A stretch of 64,000 nucleotides of DNA from an uncultured Polaromonas sp. Lineage in GTDB: Bacteria; Pseudomonadota; Gammaproteobacteria; Burkholderiales; Burkholderiaceae_C. The translations under genes and the position numbers were made by a program. The stretch covers positions 2,137 to 66,136 of the forward strand of contig CALMEI010000063.1 of the NCBI GenBank assembly GCA_937863225.1, written 5' to 3'. This document shows, piece after piece, positions 3,996-56,340 of this stretch; the first letter of the stretch is position 1; each line of letters opens with the position of its first letter. The notes beneath the pieces were generated by a model, which was not told the origin of the DNA, did no database searches, and saw nothing but the letters and a program-made list of their open reading frames with translations.

Positions 3996-4979
3996 ATGAC
4001 CACCTCCAACACCATTCGAGAAGCGCAAAGCCAGCAAGACTACAACCCTCTGGCCAAACAAAAAGCGGGCGCCAAGCTGTCACGCATTCCCGTCAAAGTG
4101 GTGCCAGGCGAAATTCTCAAAAAACCCGACTGGATTCGCGTCAAAGCAGGCTCACCGTCTACCCGCTTTTACGAAATCAAAGACGTGCTGCGAAGCAACA
4201 AGCTGGTGACCGTGTGCGAAGAAGCTTCTTGCCCCAACATTGGCGAATGTTTTGGCAAAGGCACGGCCACCTTCATGATCATGGGTGACAAATGCACCCG
4301 CCGCTGTCCCTTTTGCGATGTCGGACATGGTCGGCCAGACCCCTTGGATGCCGATGAACCTTTGAATTTGGCCAAAACCATTGCTGCACTGAAGCTCAAA
4401 TACGTGGTCATCACCAGTGTGGATCGTGACGATTTGCGCGATGGGGGCGCTCAGCATTTTGTGGACTGTATTCGAAACATTCGCGAACTTTCACCGCAGA
4501 CACAAATTGAAGTTTTGGTGCCCGACTTCAGGGGGCGTGATGACCGTGCTTTGAAAATCTTAACGACTGCGCCGCCCGATGTGATGAACCACAACTTGGA
4601 AACCGCACCGCGGCTGTATAAAGAAGCACGACCAGGCTCTGACTATTTATTCTCACTGCAACTGCTGAAAAAATTCAAAGACTTGCACCCCCATGTGCCG
4701 ACCAAAAGCGGCATCATGGTCGGCTTAGGCGAGACCGACGAAGAAGTGCTGCAAGTCATGCAAGACATGCGCAACCACAACATCGACATGCTCACCATTG
4801 GTCAATACCTCGCACCATCCAACGCGCACTTAACCGTCAAACGCTATGTGCACCCCGACACCTTCAAAATGTTCGAAACCCGTGCCTACGAGATGGGCTT
4901 TAGCCACGCCGCCGTGGGCGCCATGGTGCGTTCAAGCTACCATGCGGACGTGCAGGCCAGTAAAGCAGTCGCATCCTAG
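3996..4979 (+). CDS. lipA: lipoyl synthase LipA (radical SAM)
   Basis: [12 protein letters not shown] and [10 protein letters not shown] cysteine clusters; full-length 327 aa. Confidence 0.95.
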
Positions 4980-8819: not shown

Positions 8820-8896
8820 ACCCGCTTTGATGCGCGGAATTCAGCCCAATCCAAGTAATTGGCGTTTTATTCAGGGATAATGACTTCTTTTTCCAG

Positions 8897-8994
8897 CACC
8901 CAAGGAGCGTTGCAGCGCCAGACAACCCGGTTGGCGCAAGGCTTGGGTGGGTGTAGCGTCACAAAAGCTAGCACTGGATTGCAACGGCGCTCAC
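8897..8994 (+). promoter_or_regulatory. SAH (S-adenosylhomocysteine) riboswitch in the metH leader
   Basis: P1 is CACCCAAG (8897-8904) paired with CTTGGGTG (8942-8949). P2 is GCGCCA (8915-8920) paired with TGGCGC (8932-8937). A third hairpin lies at about 8951-8975. GGAGCGTTGC (8904-8913) pairs with GCAACGGCGCTCAC (8981-8994), matching the conserved SAH-element strings as I remember them. A T7 run follows at 8998-9004. Confidence 0.7.
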
Positions 8995-9042
8995 TGGTTT
9001 TTTTCTTGTATCTTGTGCTGTAACTGCGGCAAACCGTGCGCT

Positions 9043-11973
<2,931 letters not shown>

Positions 11974-15080: not shown

Positions 15081-15682
15081 TGGATATCATCTTCAACGCC
15101 GCTGTTGCCATTGTGATGGCAACGACTCTGATTTTGGGCTTGAATGCTCCCAAAACAACGGTCATCTTGCTCCCTCAAGCCGACGGTTCACCTTCTGCTG
15201 TGGAGGTGAAAACCACTAGCGACTCGCAAGTATTGCAAACCCCTTACCAGCGTGCAACGGCAAAAAGTGGACAAGCTTTGGCCATCGATGCCTTAGACAA
15301 AAATGCTGTGGCTGATCAATACCCCAGTCTGTTTTCTGCCATGCCCGCGCCCGCTAAAAAGTTTGTCCTTAACTTCATGCCAGGCGGCACAGAATTAACA
15401 CCGGCGTCTAAAGCTGCTTTGCCTGACATATTGGCAGATGCCAACAATCGATCAGGCGCTGATTTGGTGGTCACCGGTCACACCGACACCACGGGGGCAT
15501 TGTTGGCCAATGATGCGTTGTCTCTCAAACGCGCCGAGGTTGTGACCAAATTGCTCGTTGAAAGCGGTGCGCCTGCGGCTCGCATTGAATCGGTAGGCCG
15601 TGGCAAACGCGAATTGCTCATCAAGACCGAAGACAATGTAGACGAAGCGCAAAATCGCCGGGTTGAAATTTGGGTTCGCTAG
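15080..15682 (+). CDS. OmpA-family (OmpA/MotB C-terminal domain) protein with N-terminal TM
   Basis: VVTGHTDTTG...NDALSLKRAE...NRRVEIWV. The start overlaps the FecR-domain gene stop (TAATG). Confidence 0.8.
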   Translation: MDIIFNAAVAIVMATTLILGLNAPKTTVILLPQADGSPSAVEVKTTSDSQVLQTPYQRATAKSGQALAIDALDKNAVADQYPSLFSAMPAPAKKFVLNFMPGGTELTPASKAALPDILADANNRSGADLVVTGHTDTTGALLANDALSLKRAEVVTKLLVESGAPAARIESVGRGKRELLIKTEDNVDEAQNRRVEIWVR

Positions 15683-15729
15683 GCGAACCACAACCTTTGC
15701 AGACAACCACGCGTACAAGGCAAACAAAC

Positions 15730-16584
15730 ATGAAACCACTCAAAGGCGTCCGCATACTCAGTTTAAGCCTGAACTTGCCAGGGCCTGCGGCCTTGATGCG
15801 CTGCAAAAGCATGGGTGCCACCTGCGTCAAGCTAGAGCCCCCCAGTGGCGACCCCATGCAGAGCCACAGTGCACACGCATATCAGCACATGCACACGGGC
15901 ATACGCACCCTGAAGGCCGACTTAAAATCGGCCACTGGCCAGCGCGCGTTGCAACGCGAATTGGCAAAAACCGATGTCTTGCTCACCTCCTTTCGGCCCT
16001 CGGCTTTGGACAAGTTGGGGCTGTCTTGGAAAGCACTGCACAAGGCTTACCCCAAGCTCAGCATGGTTGCCATTGTGGGTGCACCGGGTGCATTGGCTGA
16101 AATTCCAGGTCATGATTTAACCTACATGGCTGAAAACGATTTGGTCACAGGCTTGGAATTACCCGCCAGCCTTTACGCCGACATGGGTGGCTCGTTAATG
16201 GCCAGCGAAGCCGTGTTGCAAGCCGTTTTGACGCAGCGCAACCAAGACAAAGGCGTTTATCAAACCGTCTCACTGAGCCAAGCCGCCGCCTACTTAGGCC
16301 TGCCACGCGTGTGGGGTTTAACCTTGCCCAAATCCATCATAGGCGGTGCACATGCGGGCTACCGCGTCTACCCTTGCAAAAATGGCCGCGTTGCAGTTGC
16401 CGCCCTAGAGCCGCATTTCGCAGCATCGCTGTGCGCCGTGGTGGGCATCAAAATGACCAGCAGCAAAACCATGTTCACCCCCGCCACCCACCAAGCCATC
16501 GCCACATGGCTGGCCACACAAACGCGCCAACAACTGAACGCATTGGCCAAACAACACGACCTGCCTCTGCATACGCTACTTTAG
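15730..16584 (+). CDS. short family III CoA-transferase (CaiB/BaiF-like)
   Basis: ATG at 15730 inside ORF 15670..16584. KGVRILSLSLNLPGP...LEPPSGD...GHDLTYMA. About 284 aa, shorter than the typical family member. Confidence 0.65.
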   Translation: MKPLKGVRILSLSLNLPGPAALMRCKSMGATCVKLEPPSGDPMQSHSAHAYQHMHTGIRTLKADLKSATGQRALQRELAKTDVLLTSFRPSALDKLGLSWKALHKAYPKLSMVAIVGAPGALAEIPGHDLTYMAENDLVTGLELPASLYADMGGSLMASEAVLQAVLTQRNQDKGVYQTVSLSQAAAYLGLPRVWGLTLPKSIIGGAHAGYRVYPCKNGRVAVAALEPHFAASLCAVVGIKMTSSKTMFTPATHQAIATWLATQTRQQLNALAKQHDLPLHTLL

Positions 16585-16588
16585 TGTA

Positions 16589-16655
16589 TTTTATATATCA
16601 AATCTGGCTGTAGGCGGCGTATTGATTGCCTAGAGTGCTATTTAATTTATAGCAA
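16589..16655. repeat. dispersed 65-70 bp repeat family, intergenic copy
   Basis: ...ATCTGGCTGTAGGCGGCGTATTGATTGCCTAGAGTGCTATTTAATTTATAGCAA lies between two convergent stop codons (16584 and 16664). Confidence 0.85.
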
Positions 16656-16663
16656 TCTAGAAA

Positions 16664-17305
16664 CTACGGGCACGTATATTTTGTTGGCGATCTGAACGAC
16701 ATGCCTGACAGTGCTGCGTTGTATTGCATATAACGAATAAGCCGGTCTTTGGTACTGGTATTCATTGCTTCCATTTGTTTCGATATCTTATAGCTTTCAT
16801 CACGATTTGGGTTATAGGCATCACCCAAACACTTTGTGGCAAGCATTAATTCGTCCTCGAGTTTTTGTAACGCAACTTTGTCATTCAGGTCAACCAATAG
16901 CGTCTTCTGAAATGCCGCAGCTTTTAACATTGCTGAGCTTTTTTGTTGATCTGTCATGGGTTGTGCGGCAATCCAAGCCTCCATGTCATCGCGCACACCG
17001 TTTAGGTTTTGGTCTGCGCCCTTGATGTCTTTGGAGACGTCTATTTTGGGCAGCTTTCCTCTGGCCTGCATGTCTTTGACTTCGCCTCTTAAATCCATAT
17101 CAGCAGGCAAGGGATCTACTTGCGCAGTTTGCTGATATGTGGTGGCGCTTGCACCTGACTGTGGGCTTGCTGTAGTTCGCGGCAGCATCTCGACGGGTGC
17201 AGTGTCATCCGTGCTGAAACTGCACCATGCCAAGCCTAGACAGGCAAGGACTATCGCCAAATAGGGTGCGGCTTTGCGTAAGATTATGGGATTAGATGTA
17301 GCCAT
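16664..17305 (-). CDS. hypothetical lipoprotein/secreted protein, partner of the upstream hydrolase
   Basis: N-terminal hydrophobic segment with LAIVLAC (lipobox-like). AT-rich relative to neighbours. No family recognised. Confidence 0.55.
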   Translation of the reverse strand: MATSNPIILRKAAPYLAIVLACLGLAWCSFSTDDTAPVEMLPRTTASPQSGASATTYQQTAQVDPLPADMDLRGEVKDMQARGKLPKIDVSKDIKGADQNLNGVRDDMEAWIAAQPMTDQQKSSAMLKAAAFQKTLLVDLNDKVALQKLEDELMLATKCLGDAYNPNRDESYKISKQMEAMNTSTKDRLIRYMQYNAALSGMSFRSPTKYTCP

Positions 17306-17362
17306 ATTTGTTCATTTTGTATTTGGTTTTGCTGGTTACTTGCTAGATGCTGGTTGCTTGTT

Positions 17363-18760
17363 TCAGTTTCTCACACGTTCGATAGCCGCATCAATCATTG
17401 CTATCACCTGGGCATAGGCGTTGTATGCTTTGTTCAAATAAGTGCCGAGGAAGCCATGTCCAGACCAATCGCCCCGTGGCACCGAAGCATATGCGAGATC
17501 AGCACATGGCGGTGTCTCAGGACTCACTGGGGTATCAAAGCACGCAGGATCCAATGAGAGAATTCCTAAATCAATATTTGATGGACGCAATGAAGTACCT
17601 AATGCGCGTAAGCCCTTGTTAATAACACTGTCCGTATTAGACAAAATATAGTTATTTCCAATAAGACTTGAAGTTGGTGGGGCAATGTGCACCACTTCTA
17701 TCTTGACTGGTGGCGTTAGGCCTTGCATGCCAGCATACGCCGCATTTGCAAAAAAATTACCTTGTGAATGCGCAACAAATACCATGCCTTTGACAGTATC
17801 GGCATAGGATTTGAGTGTTGCGATGTGACCAGCGGTGTCTGATACTGTGGGTGGTTTGGTGACCAGTTTTAACAACCGATTCACCCACCATGAATTTTGG
17901 AGTTTATCGGCAATCAGATCTGCGAATTGACCAAGTGCCAAGCGAACGGACTCATTTTTACGCTCCGAAATCAGTTTCATGGTTACGGAGCCTGGGTTCA
18001 CGTAACTGCCATTCATGATTTCTGAGAACACCACCGCACCCCAATCATCGAAGCGTTTTTCAACACGCTCTTTAAGCTGATCGTATAACTCGATAAAGTC
18101 TTGTAAACAATCTATTTTCCCACCCAAACCATCAGGCGTACAGCCAGATTGGTTTAAAAACCTCGCATAAATGAGAGGTCTTTCGGTGGTGCTAGGGAAT
18201 TCAGCTTCTAACCTATCTATGCTAGCAGTAGCATCATCACTCGAATTCAACACACCATTGAAAAAGCCTAGGAGGGTGGGGAGATTATTTTCGCAGACGA
18301 GGTAAATGCTGAAATAACCGTAGTCCTGCACGGTTGTGAATTTCTGGACTAGTTTCTGTCCGTCAGGGCATGTACGTTTTTGAAGATCACGTCGAAACGA
18401 TAGCCTTGGATAAGTAGGATCAGTGGTCGAATATTCAAATGAGCAGTAATACGCCCCCCAACCTAATCCTGTACTGCTATCAATGAACTCGCCAACTGTA
18501 GCCGTTGTTGGAGGTAAATTACTAGTAATACCGTATGTTGCGTCAAAAGCAACAATAGCTTTATTGCAAGTGGTTTGTCGATCTGTAGAAATCGCCATGT
18601 CATACCCATTTAATGGTGTAGTTAGGTCGAAGAAATAGAACGTCGTAGTTTGCGCTGTAGCAGCACAAGCAAATAATAAAAATGGTAATAGCGCCAGCTT
18701 CTTACAATAGCAAATTAACCGAGATATAACTGAGTGCTGAGTGCTGAGTGCTGACCACAT
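17363..18760 (-). CDS. secreted alpha/beta-hydrolase-like protein (putative lipase/esterase)
   Basis: Signal-peptide-like LALLPFLLFACAATAQT and a VFVAHSQGN nucleophile-elbow-like motif. AT-rich codon usage by eye. Confidence 0.55.
   Translation of the reverse strand: MWSALSTQHSVISRLICYCKKLALLPFLLFACAATAQTTTFYFFDLTTPLNGYDMAISTDRQTTCNKAIVAFDATYGITSNLPPTTATVGEFIDSSTGLGWGAYYCSFEYSTTDPTYPRLSFRRDLQKRTCPDGQKLVQKFTTVQDYGYFSIYLVCENNLPTLLGFFNGVLNSSDDATASIDRLEAEFPSTTERPLIYARFLNQSGCTPDGLGGKIDCLQDFIELYDQLKERVEKRFDDWGAVVFSEIMNGSYVNPGSVTMKLISERKNESVRLALGQFADLIADKLQNSWWVNRLLKLVTKPPTVSDTAGHIATLKSYADTVKGMVFVAHSQGNFFANAAYAGMQGLTPPVKIEVVHIAPPTSSLIGNNYILSNTDSVINKGLRALGTSLRPSNIDLGILSLDPACFDTPVSPETPPCADLAYASVPRGDWSGHGFLGTYLNKAYNAYAQVIAMIDAAIERVRN
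18731..18754. repeat. heptanucleotide tandem repeat (TGAGTGC x3.4) at the 5' end of the hydrolase gene
   Basis: The repeat is read directly as tgagtgc tgagtgc tgagtgc tga, and lies at codons 3-10 of ORF 17363..18760. Confidence 0.9.
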
Positions 18761-18993
18761 GATGCTCCTTGTTTTTTGTGCAAGTGTATGCTTGATTTTT
18801 ATTTCGTTGCAACTTTAGCTTGCTTATAACTTTGCGCTGTTTCGCATATGTTTCGTATTAGCAACGCCGTTGCAGGCGAACGAAAACTTTGGTTTTAAGA
18901 TGCGTTTGCTGATTAACGGCTTTGGCTACACAGCATCACCGGTAGCATGGTGGAGCAATACATTTGTGATGCTGGTTGGCTAGCGCTTGGCTG

Positions 18994-19061
18994 AAAATAT
19001 ATGAAAAATTGGCCTGTAGGCGGCGTATTGATTGCCTAGAGTGCTATTTAATTTATAGCAA
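18994..19061. repeat. dispersed 65-70 bp repeat family, intergenic copy
   Basis: AAAATATATGAAAAATTGGCCTGTAGGCGGCGTATTGATTGCCTAGAGTGCTATTTAATTTATAGCAA. 48 nt are identical to the copy at 16608-16655. Confidence 0.85.
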
Positions 19062-19149
19062 ATCAATTGCTGCCGCTAAAAATTTTTCTCAGCGATGAAT
19101 GCTGAAGCTGAACAATACGGGTAGTCGATTTAGCGGGTTGTGGGTTGTA

Positions 19150-20412
19150 TTAGCGCAGCGTCACTTTGGCGAACTTGCGTTTGCCAACTTGAAGCACGTA
19201 CACACCTGCGCCCAGTTTGAGGCCTTTGTCGCTGACGACGTTTGAATCGATGCGCACGCCACCGCCGTCGATGAGGCGGTTGCCTTCGCCGCTGGGGGGG
19301 GCTAAGTTCGCTTGTTTTAAAAACGCGGCAATGCCCACAGGGGCGCCGCCTTCTGCCAGTGGCAATGTTATTTCTGCGATGTCATCCGGTATACCGCCGC
19401 GCGAACGGTTGATGAAGTCTTGCTCTGCCGTGTCGGCCGCTGCCGCGTTGTGAAAGCGGGTGGTGATTTCTTTGGCCAGCATGACTTTGGCGTCTTTGGG
19501 GTTGCGGCCGGCGGCCACTTCCGCTTGCAAGGCCGTAATCTCCATCTCGGATTTGAAGCTCAATAGCGTGTACCAACGCCACATTAACACGTCTGAAATG
19601 CTCAGCACTTTGGCAAACATGGTGTTGGCGTCTTCTGAAATGCCGATGTAGTTGTTTTTACTTTTCGACATTTTTTCCACGCCGTCGGTGCCTTCTAACA
19701 AGGGCATGGTCAGCACACATTGCGGCTCTTGGCCGTATTCTGCTTGCAGATGGCGGCCCATCAGCAAGTTGAATTTTTGGTCAGTGCCGCCCAGTTCTAA
19801 GTCGCTTTTTAGCGCGACGGAATCGTAGCCTTGCATCAGCGGGTATAAAAACTCATGCACACTGATGGGTGTGCCTGCTTTAAAGCGGTCGTGAAAATCG
19901 TTGCGCTCCATCATGCGGGCCACCGTGTATTTGGCTGATAACGCGATCATGCCGCGCGAACCCAAAGCATCACCCCATTCGCTGTTGTAGCGGATTTCGG
20001 TTTTGCTGGGGTCCAACACCATTGACGCTTGGCGGTAATAGGTTTGTGCGTTGGCTTCGATTTGCTCTTTGGTGAGCGGTGGCCGTGTGCTGTTACGGCC
20101 AGAGGGGTCGCCAATCAAACTGGTGAAGTCGCCAATTAAAAAGATGACGGTGTGCCCCAAGTCTTGCAGCTGTCGCATTTTGTTCAGCACCACCGTGTGG
20201 CCAATGTGAATATCGGGCGCGGTGGGGTCCAGGCCGAGTTTGATGCGCAGCGGGGTTTTGGTGGCTTCAGAGCGCTGCAGCTTTTTGATCCAATCGATTT
20301 GCGGAATCAATTCTTCACAGCCGCGCAAACTCACTGCCAATGCGTGCTTCACACCGTCGGACATGGTGTTCAAAGCATTTGTTTGAGATTCGGTGCTAGG
20401 CGATTGATTCAT
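19150..20412 (-). CDS. tyrS: tyrosine--tRNA ligase
   Basis: DIHIGHTV (HIGH) and KMSKS motifs plus a C-terminal S4-like domain. An alternative ATG lies at 20364. Confidence 0.95.
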   Translation of the reverse strand: MNQSPSTESQTNALNTMSDGVKHALAVSLRGCEELIPQIDWIKKLQRSEATKTPLRIKLGLDPTAPDIHIGHTVVLNKMRQLQDLGHTVIFLIGDFTSLIGDPSGRNSTRPPLTKEQIEANAQTYYRQASMVLDPSKTEIRYNSEWGDALGSRGMIALSAKYTVARMMERNDFHDRFKAGTPISVHEFLYPLMQGYDSVALKSDLELGGTDQKFNLLMGRHLQAEYGQEPQCVLTMPLLEGTDGVEKMSKSKNNYIGISEDANTMFAKVLSISDVLMWRWYTLLSFKSEMEITALQAEVAAGRNPKDAKVMLAKEITTRFHNAAAADTAEQDFINRSRGGIPDDIAEITLPLAEGGAPVGIAAFLKQANLAPPSGEGNRLIDGGGVRIDSNVVSDKGLKLGAGVYVLQVGKRKFAKVTLR

Positions 20413-28625: not shown

Positions 28626-29915
28626 ATGACAGCAACATTTTTACCCAAACGCCAAGCCATTGTGGTGTTCATCGCTTTTGCTTTTGCCTATTTTTTATCC
28701 GCATTGATTCGCGCGATCACAGCCACCTTGTCGCCCACGCTCTCTTTAGAGCTGGGTTTGCAAGCGCGTGATCTGGGTTTGCTGGCAGGCGGTTATTTTT
28801 TAGGCTTCGCCGCCATGCAGTTACCCATGGGCAAATGGCTGGATAAGTACGGACCTAAAAAAGTGATTTTGAGTTTGCTACCGATTGCTTTGCTGGGCAG
28901 TGTGGCATTTTCCATGTCCAATCATTTTTATGGCTTGCTGATAGCGCGCATATTCGTTGGTATTGGCGTCAGTGCTTGCCTGATGGCACCGCTGACCGGT
29001 TACCGGCGTTGGCTAGAACCCAGCCAACAACAGCGTGCCAATGCATGGATGCTGATGACCGGCTCGCTTGGTATGGTCGCGGCCACCTTGCCTGTGCAGT
29101 GGCTGATGCCCTTGATCGGTTGGCGTGGCATATTCCTTGTCTTTTCAGCGCTGGTGTTGCTGGCCATTTTGGCATTGCTTTGGCTGGCACCGGCTTGGGA
29201 GTCACCGACAGCAAGCCAACAACAAACCCTGACGCCAAAGTCCAACCAATCGGATACAGGGTATCAACAAGTTTGGGCGAACCCTTATTTTCGCAGCTTG
29301 ATACCGATCGGCTTTTTGGCTTATGGCGGTTTGATTGCTTTGCAAACATTGTGGGTCACACCGTGGATGATTAAGGTGGCTGGCTACAGCCCAGCCCAGG
29401 CCGCGTCGGGTTTGTTTGGCATTAACCTCACCATGCTGTTTACATTTTGGTTGTGGGGCGCCATCAATCCGTGGTTGGTTCAACACAAGATTCATTCCGA
29501 CACGTTGTTGCTGCGTGGTTTTCCTTTAAGTTTTGTCATTTTAGCTATTATAATCATAGCAAGTCAGGCAACAAATACGCCGCCTACAGATCAATTTGGC
29601 AATGTATTTTATGTTTTGCAACAACACATTTGGATACTCTGGGCGCTGTACTTTGTCGGCTGCAGTTTCGTGGCGCTGACACAACCCGCGATTGCCTTGG
29701 TTTTTCCACCTCAGTTGGCAGGTCGGGCATTGTCGGCATTCAATTTGGTGATGTTCTTGGGTGTGTTTGTGGTGCAGTGGAGTTTGGGTTTGCTGATTGA
29801 TGTCTTCAAGTATTGGGGCTATACCGAGGTGCGTGCATTTCAAGGGGCGTTTGTTGTTTACCTGATTTGCGTCATGGCATCCTACGTGTATTTCGCCGTG
29901 AAAAGACCTCGATAA
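28626..29915 (+). CDS. MFS transporter
   Basis: About 12 hydrophobic segments and an MFS-like GKWLDKYGPKK loop. Confidence 0.8.
   Translation: MTATFLPKRQAIVVFIAFAFAYFLSALIRAITATLSPTLSLELGLQARDLGLLAGGYFLGFAAMQLPMGKWLDKYGPKKVILSLLPIALLGSVAFSMSNHFYGLLIARIFVGIGVSACLMAPLTGYRRWLEPSQQQRANAWMLMTGSLGMVAATLPVQWLMPLIGWRGIFLVFSALVLLAILALLWLAPAWESPTASQQQTLTPKSNQSDTGYQQVWANPYFRSLIPIGFLAYGGLIALQTLWVTPWMIKVAGYSPAQAASGLFGINLTMLFTFWLWGAINPWLVQHKIHSDTLLLRGFPLSFVILAIIIIASQATNTPPTDQFGNVFYVLQQHIWILWALYFVGCSFVALTQPAIALVFPPQLAGRALSAFNLVMFLGVFVVQWSLGLLIDVFKYWGYTEVRAFQGAFVVYLICVMASYVYFAVKRPR
29544..29612. repeat. dispersed 65-70 bp repeat family, copy inside the MFS gene (in frame)
   Basis: GCTATTATAATCATAGCAAGTCAGGCAACAAATACGCCGCCTACAGATCAATTTGGCAATGTATTTTATG encodes AIIIIASQATNTPPTDQFGNVFY. 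Confidence 0.8.
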
Positions 29916-53245: not shown

Positions 53246-54148
53246 ATGACAATTACCAAAGACTTTGCAGACCTGGATGGTCGGCTCCTAAAGCTGCTGT
53301 TGGCGGTGGTAGAGACTGGCTCCATCACCGCGGCGGCCGTGCAACTGGGGGTCACCCAATCGGCGGTGAGCCATTTGCTGGACAAGCTGCGCGCCATCAC
53401 GGGCGACCCATTGTTTGTGAAATCGGGGCGCGGCATTGTGGCCACACAGCGTGCCCTGCTGCTGGCCGTGCAAGCCCGCGAATTGTTGTCTGGCATGGAG
53501 CGCTTTGCCCTGTCAGGCGATTTTGTGCCCGCACGTTGGAAAACCACCTTCACCATCGCCGCCAATGATTTTCAGCGCGATGTGCTGCTGCCGCCCTTGA
53601 TGCAAATCTTGCGCGAGCAAGCACCGCAGGTGGTGCTGCGCGTGATTCCTTCTGGCATACCCAGCTTAGAAATGCTGCGCAACGAACATTGTCAACTGGT
53701 CATCAGCCCACGCCCGCCGGATGGCACCGACATTGTGCAAAAGCGTTTGTTTGTCGACAAATACCGCGTGTTTTACGACGCCAGCCAGCGCGATGCGCCC
53801 AAAAACAAAGCCGAGTATCTGAATGCCGAACACATCACCGTGGTGTACGAGCCCAAACGCGCTTTGGACATCGACCAATGGCTGTTGGCGCGCGGTGTGC
53901 AGCGGCAGTTTCGTGTGCTGGTGCCGGGCTTTGCCGGCATAGCGCCCTTTATCCGCGGCAGCCACATGCTGGCCACTGTGCCCGGCTTGCTGCAATCGCA
54001 TTTGTTAAACGGCTTGGCATCCTGCCCCGTCCCCGTGGCCTGCCCACCCATGCCCATGTACATGATCTGGCACCAACGCCACCACCTCGACGCAGCGCAC
54101 CAATGGCTGCGCGGCCAACTGGCGGGAATTAAGGCTTTGTTGATTTGA
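53246..54148 (+). CDS. LysR-family transcriptional regulator
   Basis: N-terminal HTH (LKLLLAVVETGSITAAAVQLGVTQSAVSHLL) plus a LysR substrate-binding domain. Confidence 0.9.
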   Translation: MTITKDFADLDGRLLKLLLAVVETGSITAAAVQLGVTQSAVSHLLDKLRAITGDPLFVKSGRGIVATQRALLLAVQARELLSGMERFALSGDFVPARWKTTFTIAANDFQRDVLLPPLMQILREQAPQVVLRVIPSGIPSLEMLRNEHCQLVISPRPPDGTDIVQKRLFVDKYRVFYDASQRDAPKNKAEYLNAEHITVVYEPKRALDIDQWLLARGVQRQFRVLVPGFAGIAPFIRGSHMLATVPGLLQSHLLNGLASCPVPVACPPMPMYMIWHQRHHLDAAHQWLRGQLAGIKALLI

Positions 54149-54273
54149 AGTAATGCGGCGCTGGGTCAGCATTGCATGTTACCGTGCTTGCTGCACAGTA
54201 TGTCAAGCGGCTACCTTCATACTATGGGCTGCAATGCCCACGACGGAGGCGGGCAATTGTATTGGTAACTTAC

Positions 54274-54702
54274 TCAAGGATTGAAAATCAGTATTCGCAA
54301 GTCATCAATTACTGAAAAGTGTTTATTGTTAGCTGTCAACAGAGTCAAAGAGTGCGTCATAGCCGTAGCTGCAATCAGGGCATCAGCCAGATGAACACTG
54401 TGCGACAAGGCGTATTTTTCAACCAAGCTACAAGCCAAGTTGCTAATGGTTTGGGTAATAGGCAAGATGTCTGGCAGAGCCTCGTCATCGCTTGATTTGA
54501 AGGCTTTTTGTATCGCTTTCAGCTCGGTTTTGTTACGACAACCCTGTGCCAACTCCATGTAAGACACTGCTGAAATTACCCAATCAGGCGTGTTTTGCAC
54601 CATGGCAAGCGCATTGGTGTTGCCGCGTGTTAGCCAAATCAACACATCTGAATCAATCAGCACACGGCTGGCAGCCGTTGCAGTTTTTGTAGCGCTGGGC
54701 AT
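54274..54702 (-). CDS. vapC: PIN-domain toxin VapC
   Basis: VLIDSDVLIW N-terminal acidic motif, ...ADALIAATA..., LLTANNKHF. It starts immediately after the antitoxin stop. Confidence 0.8.
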   Translation of the reverse strand: MPSATKTATAASRVLIDSDVLIWLTRGNTNALAMVQNTPDWVISAVSYMELAQGCRNKTELKAIQKAFKSSDDEALPDILPITQTISNLACSLVEKYALSHSVHLADALIAATAMTHSLTLLTANNKHFSVIDDLRILIFNP

Positions 54703-54969
54703 TTAAAACCGTGGTGCCCGCAACGCCCGCACATAGGCTGCAGGGTCAGCCACATCATCCCGCTCTGCCCACATACCCACTATCCCGTTTAAACGCTTTA
54801 CTTTGTCAGTAGAGTCTGTAGGTGTTTGCTGGTCTAAAAACTGGTCAACAGCTTGCCGAATCAACTCACTCTTAGTCACCGCCGACCGCCTGCAGGCCGC
54901 CGCTAGGCGCGTTTGCTGCGTTTGAGTGAGGTAGATTTGGGTACGGGCTAGGGTTTGGGTGGACTGCAT
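54703..54969 (-). CDS. vapB: ribbon-helix-helix antitoxin (VapB/CopG-like)
   Basis: 88 aa. TQIYLTQTQQTRLAAACRRSAVTKSELIRQAVDQFL has an RHH pattern and abuts the PIN gene. Confidence 0.75.
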   Translation of the reverse strand: MQSTQTLARTQIYLTQTQQTRLAAACRRSAVTKSELIRQAVDQFLDQQTPTDSTDKVKRLNGIVGMWAERDDVADPAAYVRALRAPRF

Positions 54970-55021
54970 GATGTATTAATTATACATCAAATTAAATTAT
55001 GTTTATTTTTATAAGTATCTA

Positions 55022-55049
55022 TTTACAAAAAAATAAAAGTGCTTATAAT
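55022..55049 (+). promoter_or_regulatory. sigma70-like promoter of the AT-rich two-gene module
   Basis: TTTACA (55022-55027), a 16 nt spacer, then TATAAT (55044-55049). A GGAGA RBS lies at 55068-55072. Confidence 0.5.
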
Positions 55050-55078
55050 TTAGCTATGATTGGCACTTGGAGATAAAA

Positions 55079-55375
55079 ATGATTACAACCACTGAAGCAT
55101 TAATTTTAGGACTACTTGCTCAAACACCGCTTGGTGCATTTCCTTCTGAATTGATAAATCGTTCAAATGGTAAATTAAAACGTGGTTCTGCTTATGCACT
55201 TTTAGCGCGTATGGAAGATGCCAAGTTGGTTAGTTCAGAATCTGTACAACCGACGGAACTTTTAGCATTAGCACGAACAAAATATAAGATTACAGCGGCT
55301 GGGCAGAATGCGCGAATCGAGTTAGCAAATTATTGCAATCTACCCATTTCATATGATTTTAATTTTGGAGTATGA
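55079..55375 (+). CDS. PadR-like winged-helix transcriptional regulator
   Basis: ATG at 55079 inside ORF 55067..55375. ALILGLLAQ...GSAYALLARMEDAKLVSS...KYKITAAG follows the PadR pattern. Very AT-rich. Confidence 0.6.
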   Translation: MITTTEALILGLLAQTPLGAFPSELINRSNGKLKRGSAYALLARMEDAKLVSSESVQPTELLALARTKYKITAAGQNARIELANYCNLPISYDFNFGV

Positions 55376-55378
55376 ATT

Positions 55379-55831
55379 ATGAAGAAGCCAAACAAAAATT
55401 ATGAAATTGAAGAAACTCCAGACATTGATAAATATTTATATGAATTAAAAGATGCATTCAAATATGAAGATAAATGGAAGGTTGATCTTCAACTGCATAC
55501 AGATTCTCAAAAAATGAAATTTTACTTTCGATTTTTTCGAGCTCAAAATCAAGATTTATATATTCCTAAATTCAAAGTCAATAGAAAAGCTCCTAAGCTT
55601 CAAAAATTAAGCCTGTTTGCTGATAACCTACCTATTTCATGGGGTAAAGTACTTAAAACGGCAGCTGCAGAATACGAGGAGCGTATCAATGAACTATGGG
55701 GAGCAGGTAAATATCGATCTGCGAAATGGAATCAAAAATTAGCTTGGATTTGTGCTTTTAGTAATTTAGGATACTACCTTTGGCTTAAAGTCTGGAAGCC
55801 TGTAAGCACTGTATTTCGTAGATTATTATAA
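55379..55831 (+). CDS. hypothetical protein with a C-terminal hydrophobic helix, unknown function
   Basis: 150 aa, Lys/Tyr/Phe-rich and very AT-rich. LAWICAFSNLGYYLWLKVW is a putative TM helix. The start is 4 nt after the PadR-like stop. Confidence 0.55.
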   Translation: MKKPNKNYEIEETPDIDKYLYELKDAFKYEDKWKVDLQLHTDSQKMKFYFRFFRAQNQDLYIPKFKVNRKAPKLQKLSLFADNLPISWGKVLKTAAAEYEERINELWGAGKYRSAKWNQKLAWICAFSNLGYYLWLKVWKPVSTVFRRLL

Positions 55832-55845
55832 ATTTGGCATTTCAA

Positions 55846-55875
55846 GCAAAAAGCCCTCATTCGAGGGCTTTTTGC
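55846..55875. terminator. bidirectional terminator (perfect 13 bp stem)
   Basis: GCAAAAAGCCCTC-attc-GAGGGCTTTTTGC. Confidence 0.85.
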
Positions 55876-55896
55876 TGTGATTGACTCATTACACAA

Positions 55897-56198
55897 TCAA
55901 ACGTCAATATTCCCCGCCCGCAACGCATTCGTCTCAATAAAATCCCTGCGTGGCTCAACCTCATCCCCCATAAGCATGGTGAAAACGCGGTCGGCTTCGA
56001 TGGCGTCGTCGATTTGGACGCGTTGAAGGCGGTGTACGGTGGGGTCCATGGTGACTTACCACTGTTGGGCGGGGTTTTCTCGCCCAAGCCTTTGTAGCGC
56101 TGGCGACTGGTGTTGCGTTCGGCTTCGGCGATGAGCTACTTCAGGGCGACGTGCTCTTCTTTTCGATGCTCGCCTTCGCCGCGCATGACTTTGGCACT
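55897..56198 (-). pseudogene. gyrB: decayed 3' fragment of DNA gyrase subunit B
   Basis: The minus strand reads ...MRGEGEHRKEEHVALK*LIAEAERNTSRQRYKGLGE, then a frameshift, then [50 protein letters not shown]. This is a typical GyrB C-terminus, and only about 100 codons are present. Confidence 0.8.
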
Positions 56199-56272
56199 AA
56201 CGCCACCAACTCGACGCTGCGCACCAGTGGCTGCGCGACAAACTGGCGGCAATTGCGGCTTTGTTGACTTGA
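56199..56272 (+). repeat. duplicated 3' end of the LysR gene (direct repeat of 54075..54148)
   Basis: 65 of 74 positions are identical by my alignment. It keeps the same frame and stop: RHQLDAAHQWLRDKLAAIAALLT* versus RHHLDAAHQWLRGQLAGIKALLI*. Confidence 0.85.
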
Positions 56273-56340
56273 CGCAAATTGATGCGGGCGGGATGCCCTT
56301 AAGCTGTGCGCTGCATAAAATGGCAGCTGGTTAGCTGGGT

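Follow-up and report, generated by a model that had tools for sequence, protein, structure and literature searches.

The window analysed here is a 64-kb stretch of DNA from an uncultured Polaromonas sp. (contig CALMEI010000063.1), and it contains a two-gene cassette, encoding an exported α/β-hydrolase and a lipoprotein, that lies between two copies of a dispersed repeat, here called R. We read the cassette as an accessory module in which a secreted hydrolase is paired with a cognate inhibitor- or immunity-type lipoprotein and which has been moved by recombination at R, and put the probability of this reading as a whole at roughly 60%. It appears very probable that the cassette is accessory DNA, linked to a duplication of R and occupying a site found empty in relatives. 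The evidence that counts is the sister relationship of the flanking R copies together with the empty and alternatively occupied sites in related genomes (loci compared are given as L numbers); bracketing alone is weak, because R is a dense family resembling miniature inverted-repeat transposable elements (MITEs) and repetitive extragenic palindromic (REP) sequences. The features of the locus are as follows.

15670..16584, plus strand: coenzyme A (CoA)-transferase family III gene, left flank (Pfam PF02515, E 1e-38)
16591..16655, plus strand: left R copy, with the 48-nt identical core at 16608-16655
16664..17305, minus strand: lipoprotein gene, 213 aa, with the lipobox IVLAC22
17363..18760, minus strand: exported α/β-hydrolase gene, 465 aa, with signal peptide and AAGGAG Shine-Dalgarno sequence
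18730..18754, minus strand: heptanucleotide tract TCAGCAC (coding strand), 3.6 copies, starting at hydrolase codon 3
18761..18800, minus strand: conserved leader with Shine-Dalgarno sequence (CAAGCATACACTTGC...AAGGAG)
18801..18995, strand undefined: upstream spacer of the cassette, AT-rich, 195 nt
18996..19061, plus strand: right R copy, with the 48-nt identical core at 19014-19061
19088..19106, minus strand: terminator-like hairpin and T-run 3' of tyrS, beyond the cassette
19150..20412, minus strand: tyrS, core gene of the right flank (Pfam tRNA-synt_1b, E 2e-78; protein 93% identical to that of L008)

The cores of the two R copies are identical at 48 of 48 positions on the same strand, as established by reading the sequence and by a mismatch-tolerant search, and no other match to the core with up to 3 mismatches was found in the window (0.00 expected by chance). 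Beyond the core the likeness continues in the 5' direction to about 16591 and 18996, imperfectly and with one indel. Over the whole unit the flanking copies are 88-91% identical, compared with at most 83% for any other R pair, and the core that agrees perfectly within this pair shares 34-41 of its 48 positions with R copies in related genomes. The enclosed 2.34 kb (16656-18995) has a G+C content of 0.449 versus 0.518 for the window, the seventh lowest value among 617 windows of equal size, and third-position G+C (GC3) is 0.40 in the hydrolase gene and 0.49 in the lipoprotein gene as opposed to 0.64-0.66 in the flanking CoA-transferase gene and tyrS. An earlier reading of this DNA from its letters alone (the sequence-only reading) had proposed same-orientation repeats with 48 identical nt, the most similar such pair in the window, around an AT-richer interval encoding a 465-aa signal-peptide protein with an AHSQG motif and a 213-aa lipoprotein-like partner. 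All of this holds: both reading frames are as claimed, and the G+C and codon-usage profile that it called for finds the cassette atypical for the window. What it understated is the repeat, which is a dispersed family of ~65 nt with 11 strong and 2 weak copies in the 64 kb, on both strands (~1 per 5 kb).

To compare the chromosomal site across relatives, TyrS was scanned against species-representative genomes, giving 80 Comamonadaceae loci. TyrS identity to the window is 93% for L008 (Ca. Aalborgiella aggregata, the closest available relative), 87% for L140 and 86% for L009 (a Polaromonas metagenome-assembled genome). In L008 and L009, tyrS and the CoA-transferase gene are convergent neighbours with no cassette between them, and the spacer of ~100-150 nt holds exactly one R, oriented as in the window. 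Just such a site, empty and with one repeat copy, was what the sequence-only reading had suggested looking for. L140 is occupied, in the order tyrS (87%), R, a hydrolase homologue (43% over the catalytic domain), a lipoprotein homologue (54%), R, CoA-transferase gene (75%), and the G+C content of the occupant is 0.433 versus 0.521. Its tyrS-side R lies 12 nt from the tyrS stop codon, the same distance as the single R of L008, and its CoA-transferase-side R retains a short distance to the stop codon of that gene, so the occupant sits between two R copies that each keep one resident flank. In the window the CoA-transferase stop codon lies 6 nt ahead of the left R (the true start of this gene is probably ~15730, since database protein P0275 is 284 aa long). 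At each of the two occupied sites the flanking R copies are each other's best match, with 88% identity in the window and 83% in L140, where other copies reach at most 83% and 74%, respectively. Among more distant Comamonadaceae the hydrolase-lipoprotein pair was not found beside tyrS. The idea of a horizontally acquired or excisable cassette is supported by the empty sites, the atypical composition and the conserved linkage of the pair described below; the same cassette, with the same composition, is not a fixture of all relatives, the site being empty in L008 and L009 and holding a divergent pair in L140.

In the hydrolase, a signal peptide is followed by a variable N-terminal region that contains Cys (~36-160), and the catalytic domain carries the motifs GFFNGV (165-170), AHSQGN (containing S332), D377 and H435. 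The residues A330-H-S332-Q-G334 make up a nucleophile elbow of the Sm-x-Ser-x-Sm type, and GFFNGV, H-S-Q-G-N, D377 and H435 are invariant in an alignment of 40 sequences. D377 and H435 lie C-terminal to S332, which by sequence order gives the Ser-Asp-His succession of the α/β-hydrolase triad. In the AlphaFold model (AF2) the elbow follows strand 325-331 and precedes helix 334-345, with a predicted local distance difference test score (pLDDT) above 90 there; the mean pLDDT of the model is 69, with values above 90 around the motifs and no confident structure in 35-127. Foldseek matches in the PDB are all below threshold, and the top ones are lipases, namely A. fulgidus lipase (2zyr), B. subtilis LipA (1i6w) and SpL (8oim). 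The protein appears to be a Sec-exported α/β-hydrolase with Ser332, Asp377 and His435 as its triad, from an uncharacterised lipase/esterase-like family, and it is probably an active enzyme of the lipase/esterase type.

No match to the hydrolase was found in Pfam or NCBIfam, and searches of PDB sequences with single sequences and profiles gave nothing useful. Among the 40 homologues, family matches were marginal: Abhydrolase_6 (E 0.0075) and Tle3 (E 0.099) in 2 of 40 each, and DUF676 in a few. A word index yielded more than 250 homologues, none of them with precomputed Pfam domains, and a profile search found 3518 representative clusters at E ≤1e-3 and 583 at ≤1e-30, counts that may be inflated because the profile includes a C-terminal YfaP-like domain. 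Longer members of the family add immunoglobulin (Ig)-like or YfaP-like modules, and trafficking domains of type VI secretion systems (T6SS), contact-dependent growth inhibition (CDI) systems or Rhs proteins were found in none of the family members. A literature search on the AHSQG motif and on lipase, immunity and lipoprotein systems returned nothing on the hydrolase family.

The lipoprotein has a lipobox, a disordered Pro/Thr/Gln linker and a helical domain of ~140 aa. Bacterial lipoboxes follow the rule [LVI][ASTVI][GAS]C (PROSITE PS51257), and the N-terminus of the window protein (...R10-K11...AIVLAC22) fits this rule with its lipobox within the first ~35 residues; homologues carry LLTAC, LLASC, ITAC, LPAC, LSAC or LYAC, and all inspected homologues with an intact N-terminus have a lipobox, a low-complexity linker and a domain of ~140 aa. 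That domain is modelled confidently as a helical bundle (pLDDT ~95). The model has no credible structural neighbour in the PDB by Foldseek (best E 0.44), and the protein and 20 homologues matched no family in Pfam or NCBIfam and nothing in a PDB sequence search. The domain contains an invariant loop, D-x-N-x-N-G-x-R-D-D-x-E (D98-x-N-x-N-G-x-x-D-D-x-E in the window), and two invariant cysteines, C159 and C212. We take the loop to resemble the Ca2+ sites of EF-hands and dockerins, and the protein is predicted to face the periplasm, with a Ca-loop-like motif and a disulfide pair. Matches of both cassette proteins to well-characterised housekeeping families had been named in the sequence-only reading as telling against its cassette; neither protein has such a match in Pfam, NCBIfam or the PDB.

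The two genes are linked well beyond the window. The pair occurs widely among Beta- and Gammaproteobacteria, both on chromosomes and on plasmids, and is always annotated as "hypothetical" and with no Pfam family. A hydrolase gene stands beside a lipoprotein homologue in L005-L007 and L088-L091 (Hydrogenophaga and related genomes) and in 24 of 48 metagenome loci, or 11 of the 18 with at least 1.5 kb on both sides. Plasmids of Cupriavidus metallidurans and Aeromonas media carry the lipoprotein gene ahead of the hydrolase gene, whose start it overlaps; both gene orders occur, and coupling is often translational. In the Hydrogenophaga loci L088 and L089, with the hydrolase at 4001, the same pair and downstream genes are joined to different upstream neighbours: one assembly has a DNA methylase gene and unknown open reading frames (ORFs) there, the other a Mg-chelatase/ComM-like gene. 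In our view the lipoprotein is most likely the specific binding partner of the hydrolase.

What the partner does is suggested by loci that depart from the simple pair. Tandem arrays hold 2-6 diverged lipoprotein paralogues, some without a hydrolase, and in several loci there are pieces of the hydrolase C-terminus (profile positions ~220-353), every one with a further lipoprotein gene behind it. The hydrolase has a ratio of nonsynonymous to synonymous substitution rates (dN/dS) of 0.20 and the lipoprotein one of 0.21-0.31; for the terminal lipoprotein gene of a hydrolase-less array (L001_214, the sole orphan-array gene tested) the value is 0.21-0.28, indicating purifying selection. A cognate pair with diversified arrays, selected orphans and displaced 3' fragments looks like an effector/immunity locus, and the array and orphan patterns favour an immunity- or inhibitor-type partner over a chaperone. 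Lipoproteins are described as immunity proteins for lipase toxins acting in the periplasm, for example Tli3 (PMC9860674, PMC13133936). Our tentative assignment of the lipoprotein is to an immunity or inhibitor role, not to one in maturation, at somewhat less than even odds.

The chief competitor of this assignment is a secreted lipase/esterase with a dedicated maturation factor, in which the lipoprotein would be a periplasmic steric chaperone or a Ca-dependent activator and the enzyme would serve nutrient acquisition with no antagonism. Lipases of families I.1 and I.2 depend on the foldase Lif for folding or secretion, and the membrane anchor, flexible linker and helical domain of the present lipoprotein recall it. 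The tight and often translationally coupled pairing in both orders also fits a maturation factor, as do the Sec signals and the Ig-like and YfaP-like modules, typical of exoenzymes and accompanied by no toxin-delivery domains. Neither PF03280 (Lipase_chap) nor any lipase family is matched, however; diverged arrays persist without a hydrolase, with L001_214 under purifying selection, and 'orphan modules' of hydrolase fragment and lipoprotein are hard to explain by a chaperone. We therefore hold a pure maturation role to be rather unlikely. The two roles are not exclusive: a T6SS lipase is reported to be activated by its own immunity lipoprotein (bioRxiv 10.1101/2023.03.28.534661), so activation and immunity can coincide.

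The case for movement of the cassette comes from its relatives at other loci. Compared from within the left R to a point 40 nt before the hydrolase start codon, the window cassette is 84% identical to L006 over 2193 nt, and the L006 proteins are 84% (hydrolase) and 78% (lipoprotein) identical to the window pair, with synonymous divergence (dS) of 0.34-0.48; core genes of the window and L008 differ by a dS of 1.0-1.3. Behind the L006 lipoprotein gene come R and a truncated minus-strand ORF, whose place corresponds to that of the 93-aa gene ahead of uvrD in L001-L005; the 3' flank is near-identical to the junction of R and the 93-aa gene in those loci; the short contig ends before any uvrD. This pair, although at another locus, is much closer to the window pair than is the L140 pair (43% and 54%, with flanking genes at 75-87%), which shares the locus of the window pair; this is the main argument for movement between R sites over vertical inheritance at one site. 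The uvrD locus of the present genome was sought in the window and is not there.

These loci also show what travels with the genes. The junction of R, 8-nt spacer and lipoprotein stop codon in the window is homologous to those of L001, L004 and L006, so the lipoprotein gene and its downstream R travel together. Throughout the clade of the window R always directly follows the terminal or sole lipoprotein gene, and in L005 it also follows one internal paralogue. The latter locus contains a remnant of the hydrolase, a phd/PIN pair and five paralogous lipoprotein genes, and R comes after each of three successive units (lipoprotein gene, R, lipoprotein gene, R, phd-PIN, R); by eye, a 158-aa lipoprotein in L005 2968-5353 seems chimeric, its N-terminus close to the 158-aa paralogue of L004 and its C-terminal domain to the 214-aa type. 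L007 has the arrangement R, hydrolase (35%), lipoprotein (49%), R. On the other side of the cassette, the hydrolase leader (18761..18800) is common to L006, L007 and the hydrolase-less arrays of L001-L004, and the spacer at 18801..18995 matched nothing in the related loci compared.

The uvrD-adjacent locus of L001-L004 carries 4-5 tandem lipoprotein paralogues without a hydrolase, and the first of them is directly preceded by the leader of the hydrolase with its start codon and two units of the heptamer (92% identity over 64 nt). At L001 8297-8361, and likewise in L003 and L004, the first of four array genes is fused directly to leader, ATG and about two heptamer units. Since leader, start codon and heptamer units persist before the array, the hydrolase has been lost from L001-L004 by a clean deletion that kept the expression signals and the lipoprotein genes. 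The heptamer itself varies in copy number, from 3.6 in the window to ~4.6 in L006 (about 65-96) and 7.9 in L007 (274-328); the extra unit of L006 is offset by a 1-nt deletion and the frame is kept. The tract could act as a slipped-strand on/off switch.

An alternative account of the site is that the cassette is ancestral between tyrS and the CoA-transferase gene, that L008 and L009 were emptied by recombination between R copies, and that the low G+C content and the divergence of L140 reflect fast evolution or in-situ replacement. The site is occupied in 2 of 4 sampled lineages, 48-nt direct repeats are a plausible substrate for deletion given the minimal homology required by RecA, and the phylogeny is too sparse to root. 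The closer kinship of the window pair with L006 (84%/78%) than with L140 (43%/54%), the absence of the pair beside tyrS in more distant Comamonadaceae and a GC3 as low as 0.40 against 0.64-0.66 in the flanks speak against it, and we consider this history improbable.

The remaining alternative concerns R itself. A comparison of 35 distinct copies shows conservation of GGCGTATTnATTGCCTA and of a TGCTAT-N7-ATAGCA palindrome with a hypervariable 7-nt spacer, and a longer stem (CTCTAGGC...GCCTAGAG) is present in some copies and not maintained across the family. Fold z-scores of single sequences against shuffles are modest (-0.6 to -2.7), scans for terminators and for the sigma-70 promoter consensus called neither flanking copy, and R has no match in Rfam. 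Copies lie mostly 3-90 nt past the 3' end of a gene, in either orientation. A purely structural terminator was rejected on the missing scan calls, the marginal folds and the unmaintained stem, even though most copies follow gene ends. R is confined to the clade of the window (the window, L001-L009, L093 and L140/141), where it occupies syntenic positions across genera, and the gene pair has a far wider distribution; among viral contigs a single match to R turned up, which was uninformative.

R meets the usual description of REP sequences and MITEs, being short, numerous, mostly extragenic and endowed with an internal palindrome, and it behaves like a MITE that is or was mobile, because copies lie in frame inside the ORFs of metH and of a major facilitator superfamily (MFS) protein. 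The copy at 11394-11457 (minus strand) within the metH ORF (8947-11973, plus strand) forms an in-frame insert of 24 codons (11389-11460) in the activation domain of methionine synthase, at a position where E. coli MetH (1msk) has no residues. A second copy, at 29543-29608 within an MFS_1 ORF (28626-29915, plus strand), is translated in the frame that the metH insert uses (...LAIIIIASQATNTPPTDQFGN...).

Given this abundance, the bracketing might be incidental: with R so frequent, a copy on either side of a two-gene operon would be expected, the identity of the two cores would result from local gene conversion, and the cassette would have moved in the manner of minimal mobile elements, taken up as DNA and recombined through homology in the core genes on its flanks. 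The 11 strong copies in 64 kb, mostly 3-90 nt from gene 3' ends in both orientations, the retention of R at syntenic positions across genera and the lack of a recombinase in the cassette would all agree with this. It is nevertheless a doubtful explanation in view of the empty site having exactly one R where occupied sites have two, the sister R copies at two independent occupied sites, the R-lipoprotein junction that accompanies the gene to different loci, and the R copies of L005 that separate successive units, including phd-PIN.

Under the preferred reading of a module moved by recombination at R, the two-gene operon would have integrated at a resident R between the convergent tyrS and family III CoA-transferase genes. 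The moving unit would consist of leader, hydrolase gene, lipoprotein gene and one R: recombination between two R copies would release a circle with a single R, and the circle would re-integrate at another R in a Campbell-type event, leaving R duplicated or homogenised. A donor-type arrangement of R, hydrolase, lipoprotein and R exists elsewhere (L007). The perfect direct repeat of 48 nt would keep the cassette deletable, and deletion at low frequency would restore a site of the L008 type. The tract of identity is bounded by the end of R on one side and by a 1-nt indel on the other, which is as expected from heteroduplex repair across a homologous tract; a target-duplicating enzyme or later gene conversion is equally possible. 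In the producing cell the lipoprotein would neutralise the hydrolase in the envelope and may also assist its maturation, and the module would be a secreted envelope- or lipid-attacking enzyme with self-protection, used for competition or substrate acquisition.

Several points weigh against this reading. A Campbell crossover between R copies that are ~25% different would not alone yield identical 48-nt cores, which would need conversion or repair or a target-duplicating mechanism, and no recombinase is encoded among the ORFs of the cassette. Gain and loss of the cassette cannot be rooted with four genomes. The hydrolases have Sec signals and Ig-like or YfaP-like modules without T6SS, CDI or Rhs trafficking domains, so the route into a competitor's periplasm is unexplained, and a plain secreted enzyme with a maturation factor fits the absence of a delivery domain better. 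The N-terminal third of the hydrolase model is unreliable, and its Foldseek matches are below threshold (E 6e-3 or worse, TM-score ~0.2). Of the secreted lipase/esterase put forward in the sequence-only reading, the α/β-hydrolase stands, with lipase-like fold matches, and those matches are weak.

In a bolder version of the mechanism, a Rhodoferax/Aalborgiella-like clade of Comamonadaceae would possess a cassette-shuffling system that has gone unrecognised, with R as its recombination site. A trans-acting enzyme would excise circles of one or more genes plus R and re-insert them at any of hundreds of R copies, like a delocalised integron; the cargo would include a novel class of Sec-exported lipase-type toxins with lipoprotein immunity arrays as well as toxin-antitoxin pairs, and insertion would also occur in frame into core genes such as metH. 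Candidate enzymes would be a tyrosine recombinase acting on the TGCTAT-N7-ATAGCA palindrome or one of the HUH/RAYT type. We regard this as a long shot. Composite-transposon and IS200-like interpretations were rejected, as the empty site keeps one R and no mobility gene is present.

Known systems resemble the module in part. By function it most resembles lipase effector/immunity pairs. In the T6SS Tle1-4/Tli pairs a serine hydrolase with a G/A-x-S-x-G elbow is likewise encoded beside a periplasm-facing lipoprotein, partner genes are duplicated and sometimes orphaned, and loci are accessory and strain-variable. Unlike these, the window hydrolase and its homologues have a Sec signal peptide and no trafficking domain, the window protein matches no Tle family in Pfam (the best, Tle3, reaches E 0.099 in 2 of 40 members) and the lipoprotein matches no known Tli. 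Linkage to VgrG, PAAR or Hcp was not found, the neighbours being tyrS, the CoA-transferase gene, uvrD and other housekeeping genes, with the rest of the window not fully annotated. LipA-Lif (PF03280) is similar in coupling the gene of a secreted lipase-like enzyme to that of a membrane-tethered helical periplasmic protein with a flexible linker. It differs in that no sequence or profile match connects the systems and neither cassette protein has a Pfam or NCBIfam family, in that the partner is here a lipoprotein of 160-215 aa and Lif a transmembrane-anchored foldase of ~340 aa, and in that the present partner occurs in arrays and without the enzyme. The orphan toxin-fragment/immunity modules of CDI and Rhs loci share the full gene and partner followed by 3' fragments each with a partner, and the diverged partner arrays; they differ in having a large delivery protein, whereas the 'toxin' here is a complete Sec-exported enzyme.

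By genomic behaviour the module resembles small, repeat-bordered variable islets. The minimal mobile elements of Neisseria and the islets flanked by REP sequences or Neisseria intergenic mosaic elements (NIME) are small variable islets between conserved genes that lack mobility genes, and the present locus shares with them one junction with empty and alternative states, the absence of an integrase or transposase and short border repeats. Here, in contrast, a single border repeat becomes two sister copies on occupation, which suggests that recombination took place at the repeat and not in the neighbouring genes. Integron cassettes are comparable in that units of promoter-proximal ORFs are each followed by an imperfect-palindrome repeat, as in the three units of L005 that include a toxin-antitoxin pair, and in that the empty site keeps one repeat. 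They differ in that R copies are scattered across the genome in both orientations, some inside genes, with no array beside intI/attI in the window, and that R lacks GTTRRRY core sites in its consensus and is conserved in sequence rather than structure; an integron-cassette interpretation was rejected on the missing GTTRRRY ends and on the dispersal of copies between and inside housekeeping genes in both orientations. Rickettsia palindromic elements (RPE) and other MITEs insert in frame, as R does within metH (the 24-codon insert absent from E. coli MetH) and the MFS ORF. Unlike RPE, R is shorter (~65 nt) and mostly extragenic, and no transposase for it was identified within the partly annotated ORFs of the 64-kb window. 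The behaviour of the repeat site is unusual and both protein families are uncharacterised; nothing requires a new principle.

Two other features of the window deserve mention. A second AT-rich islet at 54068-56277 (G+C content 0.355 at 55-56 kb) is bracketed by an 86-nt direct repeat (54068-54153 and 56192-56277, 86% identity) that duplicates the 3' end of the LysR-family gene 53246-54148, and its cargo is a ribbon-helix-helix/PIN (VapBC-like) pair at 54274-54969 (minus strand), a PadR-like ORF and a 150-aa ORF without a family. An S-adenosylhomocysteine (SAH) riboswitch at 8896-8999 (plus strand; 53.7 bits, gathering threshold 37) is the sole Rfam match in the window. It lies directly upstream of the long metH ORF, overlapping the annotated GTG start, and not at an ahcY gene.

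The loci described here make up a natural series, with one site seen empty, occupied and with an alternative occupant, and the same cassette present at another locus. It lends itself to studies of how gains and losses of genes arise from short dispersed repeats in environmental Comamonadaceae, a group abundant in activated sludge and freshwater. Two families without a Pfam or NCBIfam model form a tightly linked module that also resides on conjugative plasmids of Cupriavidus, and its hydrolase profile retrieves representative clusters in the thousands. Should the lipoprotein prove to be an immunity protein, the module would represent lipase-type antagonism that is independent of a secretion system, or at least a new pair of enzyme and inhibitor.

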